This document shows, piece by piece, positions 1 through 6,274 of a DNA stretch of 6,274 nt. The notes under the pieces are model-generated. The model did not search any database and was not told where the DNA came from. It was given only the letters and a program-made list of their open reading frames with translations. Position numbers and translations under genes: made by a program. Position 1 is the first letter of the stretch. Each line of letters opens with the position of its first letter. Origin of the DNA: a virus (Duplodnaviria; Heunggongvirae; Uroviricota; Caudoviricetes); IMG/VR virus record IMGVR_UViG_2617270976_000005, positions 1 to 6,274 of that record; one strand, given 5' to 3'.

Positions 1-1
1 T

Positions 2-397
2 GGTCTGAGAAATGATGCCGGAGAATTGATAGGTGTGGCGACAGCCGGTAGACCTGTTGCACGACATTTGGACGATGGATTAACGCTTGAAGTAAATCGC
101 ACATGTACCACAGGAGAACGCAACGCTAACAGCGCGCTTTATGGTGCTGTCTGGCGGGCAGCAAAGGCTATGGGTTATCAACGTTGTATTACGTACACCC
201 AGGCAGATGAATCAGGAGCATCTCTCCGCGCAGCTGGTTTTGTTCGTGTGAAAGAGCTTCCTCCAAGAAAAAGCTGGGCGGAATCAAGCGTCGCCCTGCG
301 GAGTAAACGCGATCCGGTCGGAAACGGTGGTGTTCCTCGTGTGCTCTGGGAAATCAGGAGAATGAGTACCACTGGCATTCGCATCAAAGGAGAGTGA
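2..397 (+). CDS. Hypothetical phage protein, 5'-partial (frame open to window edge; first in-window starts are TTG 26 / GTG 35)
   Basis: Open frame from position 2 to TGA 395-397, protein-like composition, stop 1 nt before the next ATG (399). No family recognised from memory. Confidence 0.5.
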   Translation, partial: GLRNDAGELIGVATAGRPVARHLDDGLTLEVNRTCTTGERNANSALYGAVWRAAKAMGYQRCITYTQADESGASLRAAGFVRVKELPPRKSWAESSVALRSKRDPVGNGGVPRVLWEIRRMSTTGIRIKGE

Positions 398-398
398 T

Positions 399-662
399 AT
401 GGCAACTTTGACAAAAAAAGAACAAGCATGGTTGAGCGAATTACAGGACGTTCTTGATCGCTGTCCATCACCGAAAAAAATTGGTTTTTACACCATTGGC
501 GATAAAAGCATTTACCTGTATGACCTGCGCCGCATGGATGAAATCATGGAGGCTCTTGATAATCGTTCGTCAATGGATTGGTGTGTTGCTGTCCATGATA
601 TGAATGCAGGGTTTGATGAAAAGATTTTGTTCCCCTCATCAGTTGAAAGCACTGCGGGTTAA
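399..662 (+). CDS. Hypothetical protein, 87 aa
   Basis: ATG 399 preceded by AAGGAG (387-392, 6-nt spacing); tightly coupled to the upstream ORF; provided ORF track. Function unknown. Confidence 0.55.
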   Translation: MATLTKKEQAWLSELQDVLDRCPSPKKIGFYTIGDKSIYLYDLRRMDEIMEALDNRSSMDWCVAVHDMNAGFDEKILFPSSVESTAG

Positions 663-672
663 GGAGTAACAC

Positions 673-978
673 ATGACCACTATTACCAAAGAACGTATTG
701 AATTGTTCATTAAAAACCCGCTTGAAAACGGGCTTACCCGTGGTGAACAAATGGAACTGGCACGGATTGCGCTGGCATCGCTGGCAGCAGAGCCAGCCGG
801 TAAATTGCATGAATACAAACCAGTGGGATATCAGCGTCTGGTCGATGAGTTAACCATGCTGGTAAAGCAGTTAACCTGGCAACTGAGGAAAGCGAAGCCA
901 GACTGCAAATTACCGGATAAGGCGATGAGTTATCTGGAGCGGAACGGACTGATAAGCGTGGAGGATATTTTACGATGA
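673..978 (+). CDS. Hypothetical protein, 101 aa
   Basis: ATG 673 preceded by AAGGAG (661-666) overlapping the upstream stop; ORF track. Function unknown. Confidence 0.6.
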   Translation: MTTITKERIELFIKNPLENGLTRGEQMELARIALASLAAEPAGKLHEYKPVGYQRLVDELTMLVKQLTWQLRKAKPDCKLPDKAMSYLERNGLISVEDILR

Positions 979-1058
979 CCTGGCCTGAAGCATTAACAAC
1001 GGTAGGAATTGCGATGGCGGTGGCGCTGGTGGTGTATTCGATTTGCCGCTGGGGATAA
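975..1058 (+). CDS. Putative 27-aa hydrophobic micro-protein (MTWPEALTTVGIAMAVALVVYSICRWG)
   Basis: ATG 975 overlaps the stop of the preceding ORF (ATGA), GGAGG 11 nt upstream, single predicted transmembrane-like segment. Below the ORF-track size cutoff; my own translation. Confidence 0.25.
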   Translation: MTWPEALTTVGIAMAVALVVYSICRWG

Positions 1059-1065
1059 AAACGGT

Positions 1066-1093
1066 TTGCGGGAAAAGGAGAGTTAAGTAGAAT
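1066..1093 (+). promoter_or_regulatory. Candidate sigma70 promoter for the hok transcript (TTGCGG, 16-nt spacer, TAGAAT)
   Basis: Hexamers read by eye at 1066-1071 and 1088-1093; would give a leader of about 170 nt before hok. Not computed. Confidence 0.2.
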
Positions 1094-1269
1094 TGCAGCG
1101 GGTGCTTGAGGCTATCTGTCTCAGGCATGAACACCAAAAGGCAGATAGAGAAAAGCCCCAGTTAACATTACGCGTCCGGCAAGACGCTTAACATTAATCT
1201 GAGGCCATATCTATGCTCTACACACGTAGGTTAGCCTCTTACGTGCCGAAAGGCAAGGAGAAGCAGGCT

Positions 1270-1425
1270 ATGAAGCAGCAAAAGGCGATGCTAATCGCCC
1301 TGATCGTCATCTGTTTAACCGTCATAGTGACGGCACTGGTAACGAGGAAAGACCTCTGCGAGGTACGAATCCGAACCGGCCAGACGGAGGTCGCTGTCTT
1401 CACAGCTTACGAACCTGAGGAGTAA
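1270..1425 (+). CDS. hokD: Hok/Gef-family type I toxin, 51 aa (membrane-depolarising peptide)
   Basis: Translation MKQQKAMLIALIVICLTVIVTALVTRKDLCEVRIRTGQTEVAVFTAYEPEE matches my recollection of HokD/RelF and is near-identical to Gef. AAGGAG 1255-1260, 9 nt before ATG 1270. An in-frame upstream ATG at 1213 would give a 70-aa form. Confidence 0.85.
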   Translation: MKQQKAMLIALIVICLTVIVTALVTRKDLCEVRIRTGQTEVAVFTAYEPEE

Positions 1426-1494
1426 GAGACCGGGCGGGGGAGAAATCCCTCGCCACCTCTGATGTGTCAGGCATCCTCAACGCACCCGCACTTA

Positions 1495-1521
1495 ACCCGC
1501 TTCGGCGGGTTTTTGTTTTTA
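1495..1521 (+). terminator. Rho-independent terminator downstream of hok
   Basis: ACCCGC / UUCG loop / GCGGGT hairpin followed by TTTTTGTTTTT. Confidence 0.7.
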
Positions 1522-1644
1522 TTTTCAACGCGTTTGAAGTTTTAGATGGTGCCGGAATAGAATCAAAAATACTTAAGTAGCGCGCAGGGAGAAGAGGGAT
1601 GGACCCCGAAGGGGAAGAGCTATTTATCTGGAAGGATTCTGAAG

Positions 1645-1818
1645 ATGAAAATCGAAGAATTACGTGAAATTTTTAGTGAAGATGGCCTCTATGCTGTGCG
1701 CGTTGAGAATGGGGGTATTACCTACACAGCGTTAATTCCTGATGATCATGTAGTGTTATCTGTTGAGGCATTCATTGAATACTTGGAAAGACTCGGTTTC
1801 AAGGTAGTTCGGGAATAA
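1645..1818 (+). CDS. Hypothetical small acidic protein, 57 aa (MKIEELREIFSEDGLYAVRVENGG...)
   Basis: ATG 1645 with AAGGA 8 nt upstream; protein-like composition; my own translation. Not in the ORF track (under cutoff). Confidence 0.4.
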   Translation: MKIEELREIFSEDGLYAVRVENGGITYTALIPDDHVVLSVEAFIEYLERLGFKVVRE

Positions 1819-1826
1819 GTTATAAT
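1797..1826 (+). promoter_or_regulatory. Candidate promoter with consensus -10 TATAAT (1821-1826) and weak -35 (TTTCAA/TTCAAG)
   Basis: Perfect TATAAT hexamer directly after the stop of the 57-aa ORF; the -35 is poor. Confidence 0.3.
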
Positions 1827-1877
1827 ACGTGAGCCAGCCTGAACAACTGGCAACCTGCAGCGCCATTGGAGATGACA

Positions 1878-2138
1878 ATGGCGCATAATTTCAAATTTCG
1901 CAATTCTGATTCTGCCTTTGCCAGCAGGCACGGGTGGCGTTCTCACGCATTCAAATATGACTGGTATCAGCACGATCCCTGTACTGAAGAACAGGCCGAA
2001 TGGCTGATTCATAACTACCGCAGACGTGGATATGAGTTTAGGAAAGCCCTCAGTGGCGCTTATTGTTCGCCAGCAGCGACTGAAATTAAGCCTGTCCGGA
2101 CGGCTGGCAATAAAAATTATTGCAGAGCCACCGGATAA
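1878..2138 (+). CDS. Uncertain ORF, 86 aa; 3' part overlaps rusA out of frame
   Basis: ATG 1878 with GGAG 6 nt upstream; the first ~50 codons look protein-like, the remainder is an alternate-frame read of the RusA-like region. May mark a mosaic junction. Confidence 0.25.
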   Translation: MAHNFKFRNSDSAFASRHGWRSHAFKYDWYQHDPCTEEQAEWLIHNYRRRGYEFRKALSGAYCSPAATEIKPVRTAGNKNYCRATG

Positions 2139-2307
2139 GCGTCGTCGTGACCTGGACAATATTCTGAAAGCACCACTGGATGCGCTGACGCACGCGGGGT
2201 TGTTAATGGACGATGAGCAGTTTGATGAAATCAATATTGTACGTGGCCAGCCAGTATCTGGTGGACGGCTGGAGATAAGAATTACAGAGGTGGGTGTGCA
2301 TGAATAA
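2026..2307 (+). CDS. rusA: RusA-family Holliday-junction resolvase homolog, apparently N-terminally truncated (93 aa versus about 120 aa)
   Basis: ...AEPPDKRRRDLDNILKAPLDALTHAGLLMDDEQ...GGRLEIRITEVG aligns with the catalytic acidic region of E. coli RusA (PDRRRRDLDN...DALTKAG...DD...GGRLELTITEMG) as I recall it. In-frame TGA at 2005-2007 blocks upstream extension, and the GTG/ATG start has no clear RBS. Confidence 0.6.
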   Translation: MDMSLGKPSVALIVRQQRLKLSLSGRLAIKIIAEPPDKRRRDLDNILKAPLDALTHAGLLMDDEQFDEINIVRGQPVSGGRLEIRITEVGVHE

Positions 2308-2989
2308 CCAGTATTTACAGTTTGTTCGTGAGCAACTCATGATTGCCACTGCAGATCTCAGTGGGTCGACAAAATGCCAGCTGGAAGCCTGGCAGGAAAA
2401 TGCCCTGTTCGATACAGGGCGTTACAGACGCAAAAAAATTCGTTACCGCGATGAGGTAACCGGAAAAATGATCACGCGGGATAATCCCCCGATCCAGGGT
2501 AAACAATCACTGGCGAAAGGCTCATCAATTGCGCTGGTCAGTCCTGTTGAGTTTGCAACATCATCGTGGCGGCGTGCCGTTCTGGAACTGGAAGAACATC
2601 AGAAGGCGTGGTTGTTGTGGTGTTATGGCGGAAACATTTGCTGGGAGCATCAGATCGCGATAACGCAGTGGGTGTGGAGTGAATTTAAAACTCAGTCCGG
2701 CTCCAGAAAAATTGCAGTGAAAACGCTGGAGCGTGTGAAGAAGTTGATCTGGCTGGCGGCACAGGATGTCAGAGGATGGGTTACCGGGTGTGAGGTCTAC
2801 CAGAGACAGGAGCTTGCCAGACTGTGTGGAGTTAAGCCTGATAACTGGAGCCATAATTATGCGAACTACTGGCGTGAGATGTGCGATATTTTTAAGCGCC
2901 TCGATAGAGAATCCTTGATTTGCTCCGTGAAAATAAGAGCGCAACAAAAAGCGACCTTTTCACGACGAGATATTGCAAAAGTCAATTAA
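2300..2989 (+). CDS. Putative late-gene antiterminator Q-like protein, 229 aa
   Basis: Call rests mainly on synteny: overlaps the rusA stop, AGAGG RBS, followed by a promoter-like element and strong hairpin terminator, then late cargo. No similarity to lambda Q itself; family assignment would need an HMM search. Confidence 0.55.
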   Translation: MNNQYLQFVREQLMIATADLSGSTKCQLEAWQENALFDTGRYRRKKIRYRDEVTGKMITRDNPPIQGKQSLAKGSSIALVSPVEFATSSWRRAVLELEEHQKAWLLWCYGGNICWEHQIAITQWVWSEFKTQSGSRKIAVKTLERVKKLIWLAAQDVRGWVTGCEVYQRQELARLCGVKPDNWSHNYANYWREMCDIFKRLDRESLICSVKIRAQQKATFSRRDIAKVN

Positions 2990-3010
2990 ATCGCGTATGT
3001 TTCGTATAAA
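2973..3010 (+). promoter_or_regulatory. Candidate late promoter (PR'-like): TTGCAA, 17-nt spacer, TATGTT; alternative -10 TATAAA at 3005-3010
   Basis: Hexamers read by eye, overlapping the 3' end of the Q-like gene, about 45 nt upstream of the hairpin terminator. Confidence 0.2.
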
Positions 3011-3050
3011 TCTGATATTTTGCCGATTTTGTACGTGATGGCAAAGTAAG

Positions 3051-3078
3051 AAAAAACCACCGCCAGGTGGTTTTTTTT
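3051..3078 (+). terminator. Rho-independent terminator (tR'-like), possibly bidirectional
   Basis: AAAAAA-CCACC-gcca-GGTGG-TTTTTTTT: short GC stem flanked by an A-tract and an 8-T tract. Confidence 0.7.
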
Positions 3079-3201
3079 ATGTCCGAAAATCGCGTCAGTA
3101 CAGTAAACGCGCTGGTGGTTGCGAATACGGGTCTTTCAGCTTGCTGGCTTTTTCGACAAGAGTTATTGGTATGTCACGTTAACCGGAAAAGGGAAAAAGA
3201 C

Positions 3202-3399
3202 ATGCTAAAACAGCAGGATATGACAGAAACCGCCAGAGTGGTGTTTAATGAATTAAGCGTTACCGACCCGGCGACAGTCAGGGAGATTGCGCAGAATACT
3301 TACCTTTCACGCGAACGCTGCCAGTTAATACTGACCCAGCTGGTTATGGCGGGTCTGGCAGACTATCAGTTCGGTTGTTACAGACGCCTTCAGTCCTGA
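3202..3399 (+). CDS. Small winged-helix-like DNA-binding protein, 65 aa (possibly PapI/FaeA-like)
   Basis: ATG 3202 with AAAGGGA upstream. The TVREIAQNTYLSRERCQLILTQLVMAGL segment has helix-turn-helix spacing that I can align by eye with PapI ([26 protein letters not shown]). The longer ORF-track version (3067) starts inside the terminator T-tract and was not used. Confidence 0.4.
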   Translation: MLKQQDMTETARVVFNELSVTDPATVREIAQNTYLSRERCQLILTQLVMAGLADYQFGCYRRLQS

Positions 3400-3412
3400 A
3401 GGCTTTTTTATT
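3386..3412 (+). terminator. Hairpin with U-tract overlapping the stop codon of the small wHTH ORF
   Basis: GCCTTCAG-tc-CTGAAGGC followed by TTTTTTATTT. Confidence 0.55.
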
Positions 3413-3550
3413 TGTGGTAAATGGGCGGCTGGTGGGTGTTAGGGGCACTCACCAGCCATCTGCTCATGCGTCCGGATCACAAGCAAACCTCAGGCCCATC
3501 TGCTTTGCGCAAAAGCAGAATGAGCCTATCAGAGACAGGCTTAATGATCC

Positions 3551-4600
3551 ATGTTTAACACTGTAAAAATATCCAGTTGTGAGTTGATCAACGCTGACTG
3601 CCTGGAATTTATCCGGTCGTTACCCGAAAATTCTGTTGACCTGATAGTCACGGACCCGCCGTACTTTAAAGTGAAGCCTGAGGGCTGGGATAACCAGTGG
3701 AAGGGCGACGATGATTACCTGAAGTGGCTGGACCAGTGTCTGGCGCAGTTCTGGCGGGTGCTGAAACCTGCCGGAAGTCTTTACCTGTTCTGTGGCCATC
3801 GCCTGGCGTCTGACATTGAAATCATGATGCGTGAACGCTTCAGTGTGCTGAACCATATTATCTGGGCGAAGCCGTCCGGACGCTGGAACGGGTGCAACAA
3901 GGAAAGCCTGAGGGCATATTTCCCCGCCACAGAGCGCATTCTGTTCGCGGAACATTATCAGGGGCCGTATCGCCCGAAAGATGCCGGGTATGAGGCGAAG
4001 GGCAGGGCACTGAAACAGCATGTGATGGCCCCGCTGATTTCTTACTTTCGTGATGCGCGCGCGGCCCTGGGGATAACGGCAAAACAGATTGCAGATGCCA
4101 CAGGAAAGAAAAACATGGTGTCGCACTGGTTCAGTGCCAGTCAGTGGCAGCTACCGAACGAAAGCGATTATCTGAAATTACAGTCGCTGTTTGCCCGGGT
4201 GGCAGAAGAGAAACATCAGCGCGGTGAACTGGAAAAGCCCCACCACCAGCTGGTGGATACGTATACGTCACTGAACCGGCAGTATGTGGAGCTGCAGAGT
4301 GAATATAAGCATCTGCGGCGGTATTTTGGTGTGACGGCGCAGGTGCCGTACACGGATGTGTGGACACATAAACCGGTGCAGTTCTATCCCGGGAAACATC
4401 CGTGCGAAAAACCGGCAGAAATGCTGCAGCAGATAATCAGCGCAAGCAGTCGTCCGGGTGACCTGGTTGCAGATTTTTTTATGGGCTCAGGTTCAACGGT
4501 AAAAGCGGCACTGGCGCTCGGGCGTCGTGCGATTGGCGTTGAACTGGAGACCGGACGTTTTGAGCAGACAGTCAGGGAAGTTCAGGATTTAATCGTTTGA
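3551..4600 (+). CDS. DNA methyltransferase, N6_N4_Mtase family (beta-class amino-MTase, likely N6-adenine), 349 aa; no adjacent endonuclease
   Basis: N-terminal catalytic motif IV LIVTDPPYF (nt 3653-3664) and C-terminal AdoMet motif I DFFMGSGST, in beta-class order, with a central HTH-like insert (ITAKQIADATGKKNMVSHWF). An in-frame TGA at 3545-3547 fixes the start at ATG 3551; the RBS is weak. Confidence 0.9.
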   Translation: MFNTVKISSCELINADCLEFIRSLPENSVDLIVTDPPYFKVKPEGWDNQWKGDDDYLKWLDQCLAQFWRVLKPAGSLYLFCGHRLASDIEIMMRERFSVLNHIIWAKPSGRWNGCNKESLRAYFPATERILFAEHYQGPYRPKDAGYEAKGRALKQHVMAPLISYFRDARAALGITAKQIADATGKKNMVSHWFSASQWQLPNESDYLKLQSLFARVAEEKHQRGELEKPHHQLVDTYTSLNRQYVELQSEYKHLRRYFGVTAQVPYTDVWTHKPVQFYPGKHPCEKPAEMLQQIISASSRPGDLVADFFMGSGSTVKAALALGRRAIGVELETGRFEQTVREVQDLIV

Positions 4601-4611
4601 AACGGATGAGA

Positions 4612-4641
4612 TTGCAGAATTAATTACGCACCATTATTATT
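4612..4641 (+). promoter_or_regulatory. Candidate promoter for the tRNA cluster (TTGCAG, 17-nt spacer, TATTAT)
   Basis: Hexamers at 4612-4617 and 4635-4640 place a start site about 2 nt before the first tRNA. Confidence 0.35.
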
Positions 4642-4649
4642 CTGCTTCC

Positions 4650-4725
4650 GGCCCTTTAGCTCAGTGGTGAGAGCGAGCGACTCATAATCGCCAGGTCGCT
4701 GGTTCAAATCCAGCAAGGGCCACCA
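4650..4725 (+). tRNA. tRNA with CAU anticodon, most likely tRNA-Ile2 (lysidine type, ileX/ileZ-like); tRNA-Met not excluded
   Basis: Manual cloverleaf: acceptor GGCCCTT/AAGGGCC, D-arm GCTC/GAGC, anticodon loop CUCAUAA, T-loop TTCAAAT, encoded CCA. Close to E. coli ileX as I recall it. Confidence 0.85.
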
Positions 4726-4732
4726 TCACAAA

Positions 4733-4812
4733 CCGCCATTAGCTTATCAGGAAGAGCAGACGACACGATAACAGGGTTGTTGGTGCGGGGGCGGGTCCCC
4801 GATGGCGGTCCA
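4733..4812 (+). pseudogene. Degenerate tRNA-like relic between the two tRNAs
   Basis: Perfect 7-bp acceptor stem CCGCCAT/ATGGCGG, then the same TA + GCT(T) start of the D-arm as the flanking tRNAs, a discriminator and CCA; but no foldable anticodon arm and a non-canonical 6-nt T-loop (GCGGGT). Confidence 0.3.
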
Positions 4813-4825
4813 TTATCGGTATTCA

Positions 4826-4902
4826 GCGTTGTTAGCTCAGCCGGACAGAGCAATTGCCTTCTAAGCAATCGGTCACTGGTTCGAATCCAGTACAGCGCGC
4901 CA
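4826..4902 (+). tRNA. tRNA-Arg, anticodon UCU (reads AGA, and AGG by wobble)
   Basis: Manual cloverleaf: acceptor GCGTTGT/ACAGCGC (one G-U pair), D-arm GCTC/GAGC, anticodon stem ATTGC/GCAAT with loop CUUCUAA, T-loop TTCGAAT, encoded CCA. Confidence 0.9.
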
Positions 4903-5009
4903 TATTCATTCTTCCAGATTCCTTTCGGCAGAGCCTTATACTGAAATATACCTGGCTCAGGATATTGTTGAAAATATTATATGTTTGTCAAAAATAAAAG
5001 TTCTGTTAA

Positions 5010-5366
5010 GTGTTGATTGAGTGTTTGTTATACGGTCTAATGGTTTTTTCAGCATTAAATATTTATCATTCATATGGTGTGGGTAGAGTGAATATTGATG
5101 AGGCGTCGGGGTGTTTCATCCTTAGGCAGCGTATTGATATAGTCAATGCAGAACGAGCAAAGGCCTTCAGCCGTTTGACAGTTTTGTTCTGTACTCCTGA
5201 TCGTCTTTCGGGAAGAGACGTTATTATTCTGAATAGTGATGCTATACAGAGGGTTTGCGATGAGTTCATGGTGGCTAATTCAGAATTATTTGCTCTTGTT
5301 CAGGAGTACAACAGAATAGCCAGGACCTGTGGTATGGATGAACTTCGGATTACTCATCTGGGGTAG
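5010..5366 (+). CDS. Hypothetical protein in an AT-rich cargo region, 108-118 aa depending on start (GTG 5010 or ATG 5040)
   Basis: ORF track. Composition is more protein-like than the overlapping antisense frame, but neither start has a convincing RBS. No family recognised. Confidence 0.3.
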   Translation: MLIECLLYGLMVFSALNIYHSYGVGRVNIDEASGCFILRQRIDIVNAERAKAFSRLTVLFCTPDRLSGRDVIILNSDAIQRVCDEFMVANSELFALVQEYNRIARTCGMDELRITHLG

Positions 5367-5446
5367 ATACATATCTGGATTATCACCGGTTACGGTAAAA
5401 AGTGATTGCTTACTGTTTTTGTGAATGGCATTGCAGCAGCCGGATA

Positions 5447-5533
5447 ATGTCAGTGCTGGCTGACGGTGTGCTGGTGGCGGGTGTGGTGGTTGCTGCTTTC
5501 CCGTTGCTGAAAAAGAAAACGCTAGACTGTTAG
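5447..5533 (+). CDS. Speculative 28-aa hydrophobic peptide (MSVLADGVLVAGVVVAAFPLLKKKTLDC)
   Basis: My own translation; single hydrophobic stretch with C-terminal KKK. Weak RBS; an in-frame GTG at 5402 would give 44 aa. May be a chance ORF in GT-rich sequence. Confidence 0.15.
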   Translation: MSVLADGVLVAGVVVAAFPLLKKKTLDC

Positions 5534-5757
5534 CCGGGTATCAGTTAGCGGGAGAAATTTTTAAATACTTCACAATTCAGGCGGTTGACTGTTGTCTGGT
5601 TTGCGGGGAGTTTGTTAAAAGAAACTGGCATGGTGAATCCCCCTGTGCGGAGGGGCAATCAGCGAGTAGGTATATGGGATAATCGCGGATTCAGGTGCTG
5701 GTACTGAATTCACCGGGAGGCACCCGGCACCATGCAATGGCACATAGCGCCACTCTC

Positions 5758-5788
5758 CAGCCCCTCTCCGGAGGGGCTGTTTATATTG
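5758..5788 (+). terminator. Strong rho-independent terminator
   Basis: Perfect 9-bp GC-rich stem CAGCCCCTC / tccg / GAGGGGCTG followed by TTTATATTGATTTT. Confidence 0.6.
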
Positions 5789-5810
5789 ATTTTGTCAGAT
5801 GTGAGTAAAC

Positions 5811-5844
5811 TCCTTATGGACTTTGTTGTTTTAGTCCATAAGGA
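5811..5844. repeat. Perfect 12-bp inverted repeat with 10-nt spacer (TCCTTATGGACT-n10-AGTCCATAAGGA)
   Basis: Read directly from the sequence; no U-tract follows on either strand, so more likely an operator or RNA structure than a terminator. Confidence 0.6.
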
Positions 5845-5896
5845 CATATTTGCAGAGTGCAACGGTTATTAAAGCATTCATTCAATACGTTATCTG

Positions 5897-6274
5897 GGTG
5901 ATGCTGCCAACTTACTGATTTAGTGTATGATGGTGTTTTTGAGGTGCTCCAGTGGCTTCTGTTTCTATCAGCTGTCCCTCCTGTTCAGCTACTGACGGGG
6001 TGGTGCGTAACGGCAAAAGCACCGCCGGACATCAGCGCTATCTCTGCTCTCACTGCCGTAAAACATGGCAACTGCAGTTCACTTACACCGCTTCTCAACC
6101 CGGTACGCACCAGAAAATCATTGATATGGCCATGAATGGCGTTGGATGCCGGGCAACAGCCCGCATTATGGGCGTTGGCCTCAACACGATTTTACGTCAC
6201 TTAAAAAACTCAGGCCGCAGTCGGTAACCTCGCGCATACAGCCGGGCAGTGACGTCATCGTCTGCGCGGAAATG
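5897..6274 (+). mobile_element. IS1 insertion sequence, left end and first 378 bp (continues past the window)
   Basis: Left terminal inverted repeat GGTGATGCTGCCAACTTACTGAT at 5897-5919, and insA at the expected offset (IS1 nt 56). Confidence 0.95.
5952..6227 (+). CDS. insA: IS1 InsA (transposition repressor / N-terminal part of the InsAB' transposase), 91 aa
   Basis: Translation [43 protein letters not shown]...LKNSGRSR matches IS1 InsA as I recall it. Confidence 0.95.

Follow-up and report, generated by a model that had tools for sequence, protein, structure and literature searches.

A chimeric tRNA pseudogene between ileZ and argO in the late region of a lambdoid Escherichia coli prophage

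Late region and tRNA array

The window, i.e., the whole stretch of 6,274 nucleotides analyzed here (positions 1 to 6,274 of IMG/VR record IMGVR_UViG_2617270976_000005), is the late-regulatory part of a lambdoid prophage of E. coli that has no Shiga toxin genes. The gene order is hok/sok, Q, DNA methylase, tRNA array, small cargo genes, and STnc100, with the following features.

1100-1275: sok, part of the hok/sok module (Rfam, 117 bits)
1213-1425: Hok/Gef open reading frame (ORF), part of the hok/sok module
2294-2989, + strand: antiterminator Q gene (Pfam PF06323, E = 4.8e-82)
3051-3076 and 3386-3403: terminator-like hairpins after Q
3551-4600, + strand: N6/N4 DNA methyltransferase gene, directly upstream of the tRNA array (Pfam PF01555, E = 2.2e-44)
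4650-4725, + strand: intact tRNA with anticodon CAU, ileZ type (tRNA-Ile2-like; ARAGORN; Rfam RF00005, 72.5 bits)
4826-4902, + strand: intact tRNA-Arg with anticodon UCU, argO type (ARAGORN; Rfam RF00005, 68.0 bits)
5010-5366: AT-rich ORF, phrog_2873, downstream of the array
5402-5533: DUF3927 gene
5599-5788: small RNA STnc100 (Rfam, 132 bits)

The tRNA array lies downstream of Q on the same strand and upstream of the lysis/cargo genes, which is the layout of a lambdoid late region; matching arrays were found in locus L126 and in phages mEp460, phiP27, PhiR47_1, and YeP1. The arrangement of methylase followed by array is common to phiP27 and Stx2a phages. No sigma-70-like promoter was predicted between the methylase stop codon and the first tRNA, and the array would most simply be part of the Q-dependent late transcript. 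At most 75% of the window was covered at one place in any complete E. coli genome, and the tRNA segment alone was 100% identical in E. coli AR_0069 (NZ_CP020055). The phrog_2873 ORF was intact in 81 of 82 homologous loci, with substitutions biased to the third codon position.

Exactly two tRNAs were called in the window by both ARAGORN and Rfam RF00005 (gathering threshold, 29 bits), and they flank an uncalled element of 80 nt, in agreement with a sequence-only reading of this DNA that had described two intact tRNAs (CAU and Arg UCU) around a relic of about 80 nt. That reading started the array at position 4612, which falls in the spacer between the methylase stop codon (4600) and the first tRNA, 38 nt before the latter begins. 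Small ORFs running across the tRNA genes overlap the middle element (4704-4868 on the minus strand and 4777-4944 on the plus strand). The gene names ileZ, argN, and argO were taken from GenBank, and the anticodon UCG of argN from ARAGORN. The CAU gene is named ileZ in GenBank records AP012540 and AJ298298 and is annotated as tRNA-Ile by RefSeq PGAP in identical prophages.

The codons AUA, AGA, and AGG make up 11.3, 12.1, and 9.7 per thousand codons in the window ORFs and together 9 of the 119 codons in the AT-rich ORF at 5010-5366. The window frequencies are above E. coli averages, so codon compensation by ileZ and argO, as had been suggested from the sequence for the downstream cargo, is mildly supported.

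Anatomy and folding of the middle element

The middle element occupies the slot of argN, hereafter slot 2, and is composed of the following parts.

4733-4812, + strand: chimeric tRNA pseudogene, slot 2 (argN position), 80 nt (alignments, no tRNA call, shuffle tests)
4733-4739, + strand: 5' strand of the acceptor stem, CCGCCAT, with 7 of 7 pairs to 4802-4808 (sequence, fold)
4742-4757, + strand: D arm with stem GCTT (4742-4745) / GAGC (4754-4757), loop ATCAGGAA, and a T13.G wobble
4758-4765, + strand: 8-nt insertion AGACGACA relative to Lys(UUU)-type alleles (alignments)
4766-4782, + strand: remnant of the anticodon arm, CGATAAC / GTTGTTG, with the 3-nt loop AGG at 4773-4775 (minimum free energy [MFE] fold)
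4786-4801, + strand: T arm with stem CGGGG (4786-4790) / CCCCG (4797-4801) and the 6-nt loop GCGGGT
4802-4812, + strand: 3' strand of the acceptor stem, ATGGCGG (4802-4808), discriminator T, and encoded CCA (4810-4812)

As read from the sequence, TA separates the 5' acceptor strand from the D stem, and GTG separates the central hairpin from the T stem. The element is only 3 to 4 nt longer than a normal tRNA and keeps the canonical 7-bp acceptor stem, D arm, discriminator base, and CCA. The canonical 7-nt anticodon loop with U33 and an anticodon is absent in every register, as is the canonical 7-nt T loop with T54, psi55, C56, and A58. The T loop reads GCGGGT in place of TTCGAGT, so that T54, T55, and A58 are absent, and a run of G occupies 4787-4791 of the T arm. 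The element thus carries two separate lethal lesions, in the anticodon loop and in the T loop. The sequence-only description was accurate for the perfect acceptor stem, the D arm, and CCA; the anticodon arm, however, has not been lost as a whole, only its 7-nt loop. The destroyed T loop had not been noted there.

No tRNA was reported in the element by ARAGORN at default settings, when introns were permitted (-i), or when the thresholds were lowered stepwise to 70% of the default (-ps90, -ps80, and -ps70). RF00005 found nothing in 4700-4840 at E ≤ 10 except the tail of ileZ, and Rfam at the same cutoff returned only chance-level matches to unrelated families, both for the element and for a sister allele labeled "tRNA-OTHER." The MFE structure is a four-arm cloverleaf in which the anticodon position holds a hairpin of 7 to 9 bp with a 3-nt loop; an alternative drawing of this arm has an 11-nt loop. 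The central hairpin folds at -5.2 kcal/mol (z = -1.27), and 22 of 200 shuffled sequences fold equally well. Because its central hairpin is no more stable than those of shuffled sequences, the cloverleaf is not evidence of selection. The fold z-scores of the element (-1.29), argN (-0.91), and argO (-1.56) did not separate it from real tRNAs.

A working tRNA of unusual architecture, still decoding through an 11-nt anticodon loop, a four-base anticodon, or a 4-nt intron, was considered on account of sister alleles with an intact T arm, in which relaxed ARAGORN settings draw either an anticodon "aaca" or a Cys(ACA) with a 4-nt "intron" and some of which PGAP labels "tRNA-OTHER." We know of no such short 4-nt introns in bacterial tRNAs. 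The scorable fold is weakly present in these sisters but not in the window allele, which was called under no ARAGORN setting and whose T loop is without T54, T55, and A58. No reading made by hand yielded U33 in a 7-nt loop, and sister copies tolerate acceptor mismatches and slippage of the G run. Decoding by the element is next to impossible on these grounds.

Origin of the interior and variation among copies

The window was aligned with mEp460_ev081, phiP27, and two Stx2a phages. Near-identity among the phages extended over ileZ, argO, the spacers, and the outer portions of the middle gene; the interior was sharply different. The element lies between ileZ and argO with an acceptor and flanks of the argN type, and its homology to tRNA genes is not due to chance, because argN of Stx2 phages can be aligned column by column with its flanks and outer arms. 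The three-tRNA array that the sequence-only reading ascribed to Shiga-toxin phages does exist, as ileZ-argN-argO of Stx2 phages at exactly this position, and the middle member had rightly been taken for dead, being the positional homologue of argN with no call by ARAGORN or RF00005.

The anticodon arm of argN, CCAGC-CUUCGAA-GCUGG with the anticodon UCG, is lacking from the element, and the 28-nt interior from the D stem to the T stem showed no more similarity to it than shuffled versions did (P = 0.48). The interior did resemble the arms of another slot-2 family, with a z-score of 2.95 (P = 0.006) against a Lys(UUU)-type arm and of 3.72 (P = 0.002) against the "UGA" arm of a form called "Ser(tga)." Point-mutational decay in situ of argN, the tRNA-Arg(UCG) gene, with its anticodon arm substituted, would fit the position, the flanking spacers, the acceptor stem, and the T stem, which are all as in argN. 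The interior, however, is no better than shuffled sequence against the argN arm, and ordinary point decay of argN is therefore ruled out; it matches the arm of another family, the sharp border between near-identical flanks and a dissimilar center is unlike drift, and no intermediate between the argN arm and the block was seen among the 103 argN-type copies listed. An argN with a rotted anticodon arm, which the sequence-only reading had implied, is thus very improbable.

Other alleles came to light when shorter ileZ-argO spacings and the motif CGATAAC...GTTGTNGGTGCGG were searched for. Alleles called Lys(UUU) sit on the same scaffold as the element with the arm CGATAAC-CATTTAA-GTTGTAG, and the form called "Ser(tga)" with the arm CGATAAC-CTGAG-GTTGTAG. 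The interior of the element shares the stem ATAAC/GTTGT with the arms of loci L252, L253, and L227 and the variable loop GGTG with the Lys(UUU)-type family; it differs from the arms of these other alleles by the insertion AGACGACA, by the reduction of the loop to AGG, with which the anticodon UUU is gone, and by one A>T change. The stem of the "tRNA-Pseudo-TTG" of Yersinia phage YeP1 is identical to that of the Lys-type alleles, and a full-length BLAST search with a Lys-type tRNA as query matched the phiP27 relic (E = 4e-9). The acceptor is of the argN type in the element (CCGCCAT/ATGGCGG) versus CCGCCAC/GTGGCGG in the Lys-type tRNAs, and the T arm is of the argN type in phiP27-type alleles. 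With ends of the argN type and an interior of the Lys(UUU) type, the relic therefore unites two slot-2 alleles in one chimeric gene. Each of the four possible pairings of interior type with T-loop state exists, namely, intact argN, L067 (an otherwise intact argN carrying the broken T loop), phiP27 with L036 and L125, and the window, which shows that recombination takes place inside the 80-nt gene.

The interior block was found nowhere in the phage collection outside the context of the ileZ-argO array, and it had no second home in complete E. coli genomes (2071 places with the block versus 2062 with the whole relic). An origin of the block by inversion was rejected, the reverse complement of the argN arm being unlike it; an integrase attachment site and an intron were rejected as well, both gene ends being kept with only 3 to 4 nt extra.

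The sequence variation among sister copies was assessed in a sample drawn from IMG/VR by anchors at the ileZ 3' end and the argO 5' end, which left the middle sequence out of the choice of copies; together with other loci, the sample comprised at least 219 clusters. The relic-type interior was present in at least 116 clusters, none of them called by ARAGORN among the matches listed, and the argN type in at least 103, 95 of which were called Arg-UCG by ARAGORN. Polymorphisms were counted in 110 aligned and anchored relic-type copies. An acceptor-stem mismatch was present in 12 of the 110 (11 C.A and 1 G.G), in no case compensated; T8 was changed to G in 14; a G>C change at 4767, which breaks a pair of the central hairpin, was found in 15; and the G run varied from G5 to G16, being longer than that of the window in 28. 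Position 4765 was polymorphic for A/G. In the T stem of argO, a compensatory swap from C-G to G-C (4876 with 4890) was found in 13 sister copies. Nucleotide diversity per segment was not decisive, since its values are inflated in the spacers by mosaic recombination and in argO by two truncated copies, and the kind of change was used instead to judge constraint. Uncompensated damage in the relic against compensated change in argO is the contrast expected between a dead and a maintained tRNA, and the relic is decaying, as its sister copies show uncompensated damage. The decay suggested earlier for the array as a whole is confined to the middle slot, with ileZ and argO both maintained.

In the viral sample, the downstream sequence was of the window type in 82 of the 100 informative cases with the window-type allele and never carried stx, and alleles with an intact T arm went with stx2e or stx2g. 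The 80-nt relic was found in 1813 of 5426 complete E. coli genomes (about a third), nearly always unannotated in RefSeq. In 1813 of the 1819 carrier genomes (best copy per genome), the 36-nt interior had at most one mismatch, and lineages with differences at 8 of 20 spacer positions had the same relic interior. This uniformity could reflect constraint, but a recent spread through recombination accounts for it just as well. A scan of one genome per species with relaxed anchors found five loci, in Escherichia plus two probable contaminated metagenome-assembled genomes, and gave no distant homologues for covariation analysis.

A tRNA-like RNA that does not decode, acting as a nuclease decoy or as a structured spacer for processing of ileZ and argO by RNase P/E, would be in line with the kept cloverleaf, with an interior block that is highly uniform across about 2000 copies, and with retention far in excess of deletion (one deletion against more than 116 relic copies among the IMG/VR matches listed). 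Cleavage of anticodon stems is known for the Toprim nucleases AriB and P2-OLD (PMC12409363, PMC12445682). The hairpin stability, however, is at chance level, stem-breaking polymorphisms are never compensated, the G run of the T arm varies from 5 to 16, uniformity is expected of a young, recombining module, and arrays without a spacer keep both tRNAs (PhiR47_1 with tRNAs 1 to 3 nt apart and L218 with 2 nt). A functional mimic without an anticodon, suggested by the cloverleaf and the uniform interior and argued against by the uncompensated polymorphisms, is a residual possibility and quite unlikely.

The element is homologous to tRNA genes, has lost essential elements, and shows polymorphism that ignores structure, and is by these properties a pseudogene. 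We consider it a dead, chimeric slot-2 tRNA with argN-type ends and a Lys(UUU)-type interior that was built stepwise, with a probability of about 85%. In the order we infer, recombination between slot-2 alleles would have brought a Lys(UUU)-type interior, from the D loop to the variable loop, into an argN-type gene. The 8-nt insertion after the D stem and the reduction of the anticodon loop from 7 nt to 3 nt, with the anticodon gone, would have followed, a stage that appears to survive in the Stx2e phage phiP27 and in Stx2g prophages, where the T arm is intact. Finally, the T loop would have lost T54, T55, and A58 (TTCGAGT to GCGGGT), leaving a G run prone to length slippage. The relic is probably transcribed together with its neighbors as part of the Q-dependent late RNA, and RNase P may still cut it. 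It cannot decode, and it persists by hitchhiking with the maintained tRNA genes on either side of it in a highly successful prophage module.

Slot 2 in related phages and comparison with known systems

Slot 2, the X of ileZ-X-argO, is one conserved scaffold with the acceptor CCGCCAY and common D and T arms. Its anticodon arm is that of Arg-UCG (argN) in Stx2 phages and elsewhere that of Lys-UUU, Arg-UCU, or odd and pseudo forms. A second, independent relic, a Lys-type allele with a 16-nt internal deletion, occurs at least 30 times among the viral copies and also in 393 complete genomes, of which many are O157:H7. Complete deletion of slot 2 was seen in one IMG/VR locus among the matches listed (L218), where 2 nt separate ileZ from argO. 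Live prophage Lys(UUU) alleles are present in up to 771 genomes. The base at position 33, to our knowledge a near-universal U in tRNAs, is C or A in the Lys(UUU) alleles (A33 in L253 and C33 in PhiR47_1). The array after Q in PhiR47_1 consists of CAU, Lys-UUU, Thr-UGU, and Gly-UCC with the tRNAs 1 to 3 nt apart, and other related arrays consist of CAU, X, Arg-CCG or Arg-UCU, and Gly-UCC. A search of a limited set of literature for ileZ, argN, and argO gave no match.

The relic is an ordinary and unremarkable pseudogene in a known array, very common and unannotated; of greater interest is the variable tRNA in slot 2. The relic explains why pipelines report two tRNAs, three, or a "tRNA-OTHER" for one common prophage module. 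Its block type, T-loop state, and G-run length offer a cheap lineage marker for lambdoid late regions. The wider pattern is a middle slot that swaps its anticodon arm by recombination on a fixed scaffold and is repeatedly inactivated, while the outer tRNAs are kept.

Phage tRNAs that replace host tRNAs attacked in defense provide a first comparison. The tRNA-Thr(UGU) of lambdoid phage 21 counteracts P2-OLD, a nuclease that cleaves anticodon stems (PMC12445682), and a T5 tRNA-Lys variant counters AriB of PARIS (PMC12409363, PMC11464382), whose cleavage site is U36AAUC|A41 (PMC12409363). Related arrays, e.g., that of PhiR47_1, carry these specificities, and the slot-2 Lys alleles differ from the AriB site at positions 39-41. 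By analogy with other phage tRNAs (PMC12445682, PMC12409363, PMC10264068), an anti-defense role is plausible for the two tRNAs of the window, as had been proposed, and likewise for live slot-2 alleles. It does not apply to the relic, because the slot-2 member of the window, unlike the defense-replacing phage tRNAs, has no anticodon and cannot replace any tRNA. Slot 2 as a whole might be an exchangeable anti-defense cassette, in which swapped arms (Arg-UCG, Arg-UCU, Lys-UUU with non-U33 loops, and others) may supply nuclease-resistant substitutes against PARIS-, OLD-, or PrrC-type systems and of which the window relic would be a spent copy. In the boldest version, the relic itself may be a tRNA mimic without an anticodon that is still released by processing of late RNA and serves as a decoy for nucleases which recognize the tRNA body and cleave the anticodon stem. 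The cassette idea is highly doubtful; if the Lys, Thr, and Arg alleles of slot 2 were nuclease resistant, the distribution of live and dead alleles would record the tRNA-targeting defenses faced by temperate E. coli phages.

The Stx2-phage array ileZ-argN-argO (Stx2a_WGPS8, AP012540; Stx2_EH2201, LC567829) has the same order, spacing, and position after Q and methylase as the array of the window, and its ileZ and argO are near-identical to the window copies. The middle gene of the window differs in that it is not a tRNA-Arg(UCG), its interior being replaced and the gene dead, and unlike in Stx2 phages, the array is followed by the phrog_2873 ORF and the DUF3927 gene and not by stx.

In phiP27 (Stx2e, AJ298298) and Stx2g prophages (NZ_CP015229), the interior block is identical base for base to that of the window, and the acceptor type is shared; their alleles are the direct sisters of the window allele. 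The phiP27 record annotates ileZ and argO only and leaves the middle interval unannotated; in NZ_CP015229, the block with an intact T arm is an 81-nt "tRNA-OTHER" by PGAP. The T arm of these alleles, GGGGTTCGAGTCCTSG or GGGGTTCAAGTCCTCG, is intact or almost so, and relaxed finders can score them, whereas the window allele has the extra T-loop lesion and is unscorable.

The slot-2 Lys(UUU)-type tRNAs (L251-L254 and L258, the related L013 and PhiR47_1 tRNA-Lys, and YeP1) share the scaffold of the relic, and L251-L254 and YeP1 also have the anticodon stem ATAAC/GTTGT and the variable loop GGTG of its interior. They differ from the relic in having a 7-nt loop with UUU and the acceptor CCGCCAC/GTGGCGG, and in being without the 8-nt insertion.

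Mosaic surroundings of the tRNA array

The region is a recombination mosaic. Immediately upstream of the array, the sister copies (IMG/VR loci with the same slot-2 relic type) carried the antiterminator gene Q directly in 65 cases and the methylase gene in 27. In complete E. coli genomes, no single site matched over 75% of the window, and identity was 96.2% in the best match. The following features were located upstream of the array:

1100-1425, complete hok/sok-type toxin-antitoxin module (sok RNA, 117 bits; 70-aa Mok/Hok ORF, PF01848)
3051-3076 and 3386-3403, a pair of hairpins resembling terminators, after Q and before the methylase gene

The hok/sok-type module is located within the prophage. 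The hairpin at 3051-3076 is bidirectional, with both T and A runs, and together with that at 3386-3403 is a candidate terminator for read-through by Q-modified polymerase.

Polymorphism and alternative states of the array

The Arg-UCU tRNA gene argO was polymorphic among the 110 aligned sister copies, with a compensated swap of C-G to G-C in the T stem (4876/4890) in 13 copies, A at 4895 instead of the T4.G69 wobble of the window in 21 copies, and loss of the encoded CCA at 4901 (CCA to CTA) in 16 copies. In the relic, an anticodon-less chimeric tRNA pseudogene, the G run of the T arm (4787-4791) is a homopolymer of varying length, namely, G5, G6, G9, G10, G12, and at most G16 in the sister copies, where the long forms go with T>G at 4740. 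This variation probably reflects slippage in DNA without constraint, and the run length could serve as a lineage marker.

A second dead slot-2 tRNA, independent of the relic of the window, was observed between ileZ and argO in locus L220 (IMGVR_UViG_2531839664_000026). This Lys(UUU)-type allele has a 16-nt internal deletion in the anticodon arm, lacks annotation, and is common in O157:H7. Of the complete E. coli genomes, 393 carry it, one example being NZ_AP018488 (2015851-2015929). In locus L218 (IMGVR_UViG_2558860275_000006, 2113-2145), the whole middle element is deleted, leaving a gap of 2 nt between ileZ and argO. A further form comes from a Yersinia lambdoid phage:

1501-1578 of L260 (Yersinia phage YeP1), slot-2 scaffold tRNA, annotated as 'tRNA-Pseudo-TTG'

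The YeP1 tRNA has the scaffold in common with the slot-2 alleles and the ATAAC/GTTGT stem in common with those of Lys(UUU) type but differs in its loop, CATTGCC; since scaffold and stem are present in this phage, the variable slot reaches outside Escherichia.

Cargo downstream of the array

5010-5366, AT-rich ORF of phage family phrog_2873, likely start ATG at 5040
5402-5533, DUF3927 protein of 43 aa, matching phrog_1470
5599-5788, sRNA STnc100, full-length match, 132 bits

The 3' end of STnc100, an sRNA linked to the PasD prophage sRNAs by a 2026 preprint, is a strong terminator hairpin (5758-5779). The description of phrog_1470 reads TciB-like, with inhibition of cell division or resistance to colicin. 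Of 82 homologous loci, 81 kept the phrog_2873 ORF intact; substitutions in this ORF showed a third-position bias, and AUA, AGA, or AGG accounted for 9 of its 119 codons. It has no PGAP annotation in E. coli AR_0069, where the prophage and the window share an identical tRNA segment. In Stx phages, its position is occupied by stx.

Lys(UUU) prophage tRNAs and defense nucleases

Position 33, where U is near-universal, is A or C in the tRNAs called Lys(UUU) in the viral and prophage loci L251-L254, L258, L259 (phage PhiR47_1, 2499-2575), and L013. Compared with the published AriB cleavage context (PMC12409363), the prophage Lys(UUU) tRNAs are mismatched at positions 39-41. Downstream of Q, PhiR47_1 carries an array of CAU, Lys-UUU, Thr-UGU, and Gly-UCC tRNAs, the specificities that PARIS AriB and P2-OLD are reported to target (PMC12409363, PMC12445682).
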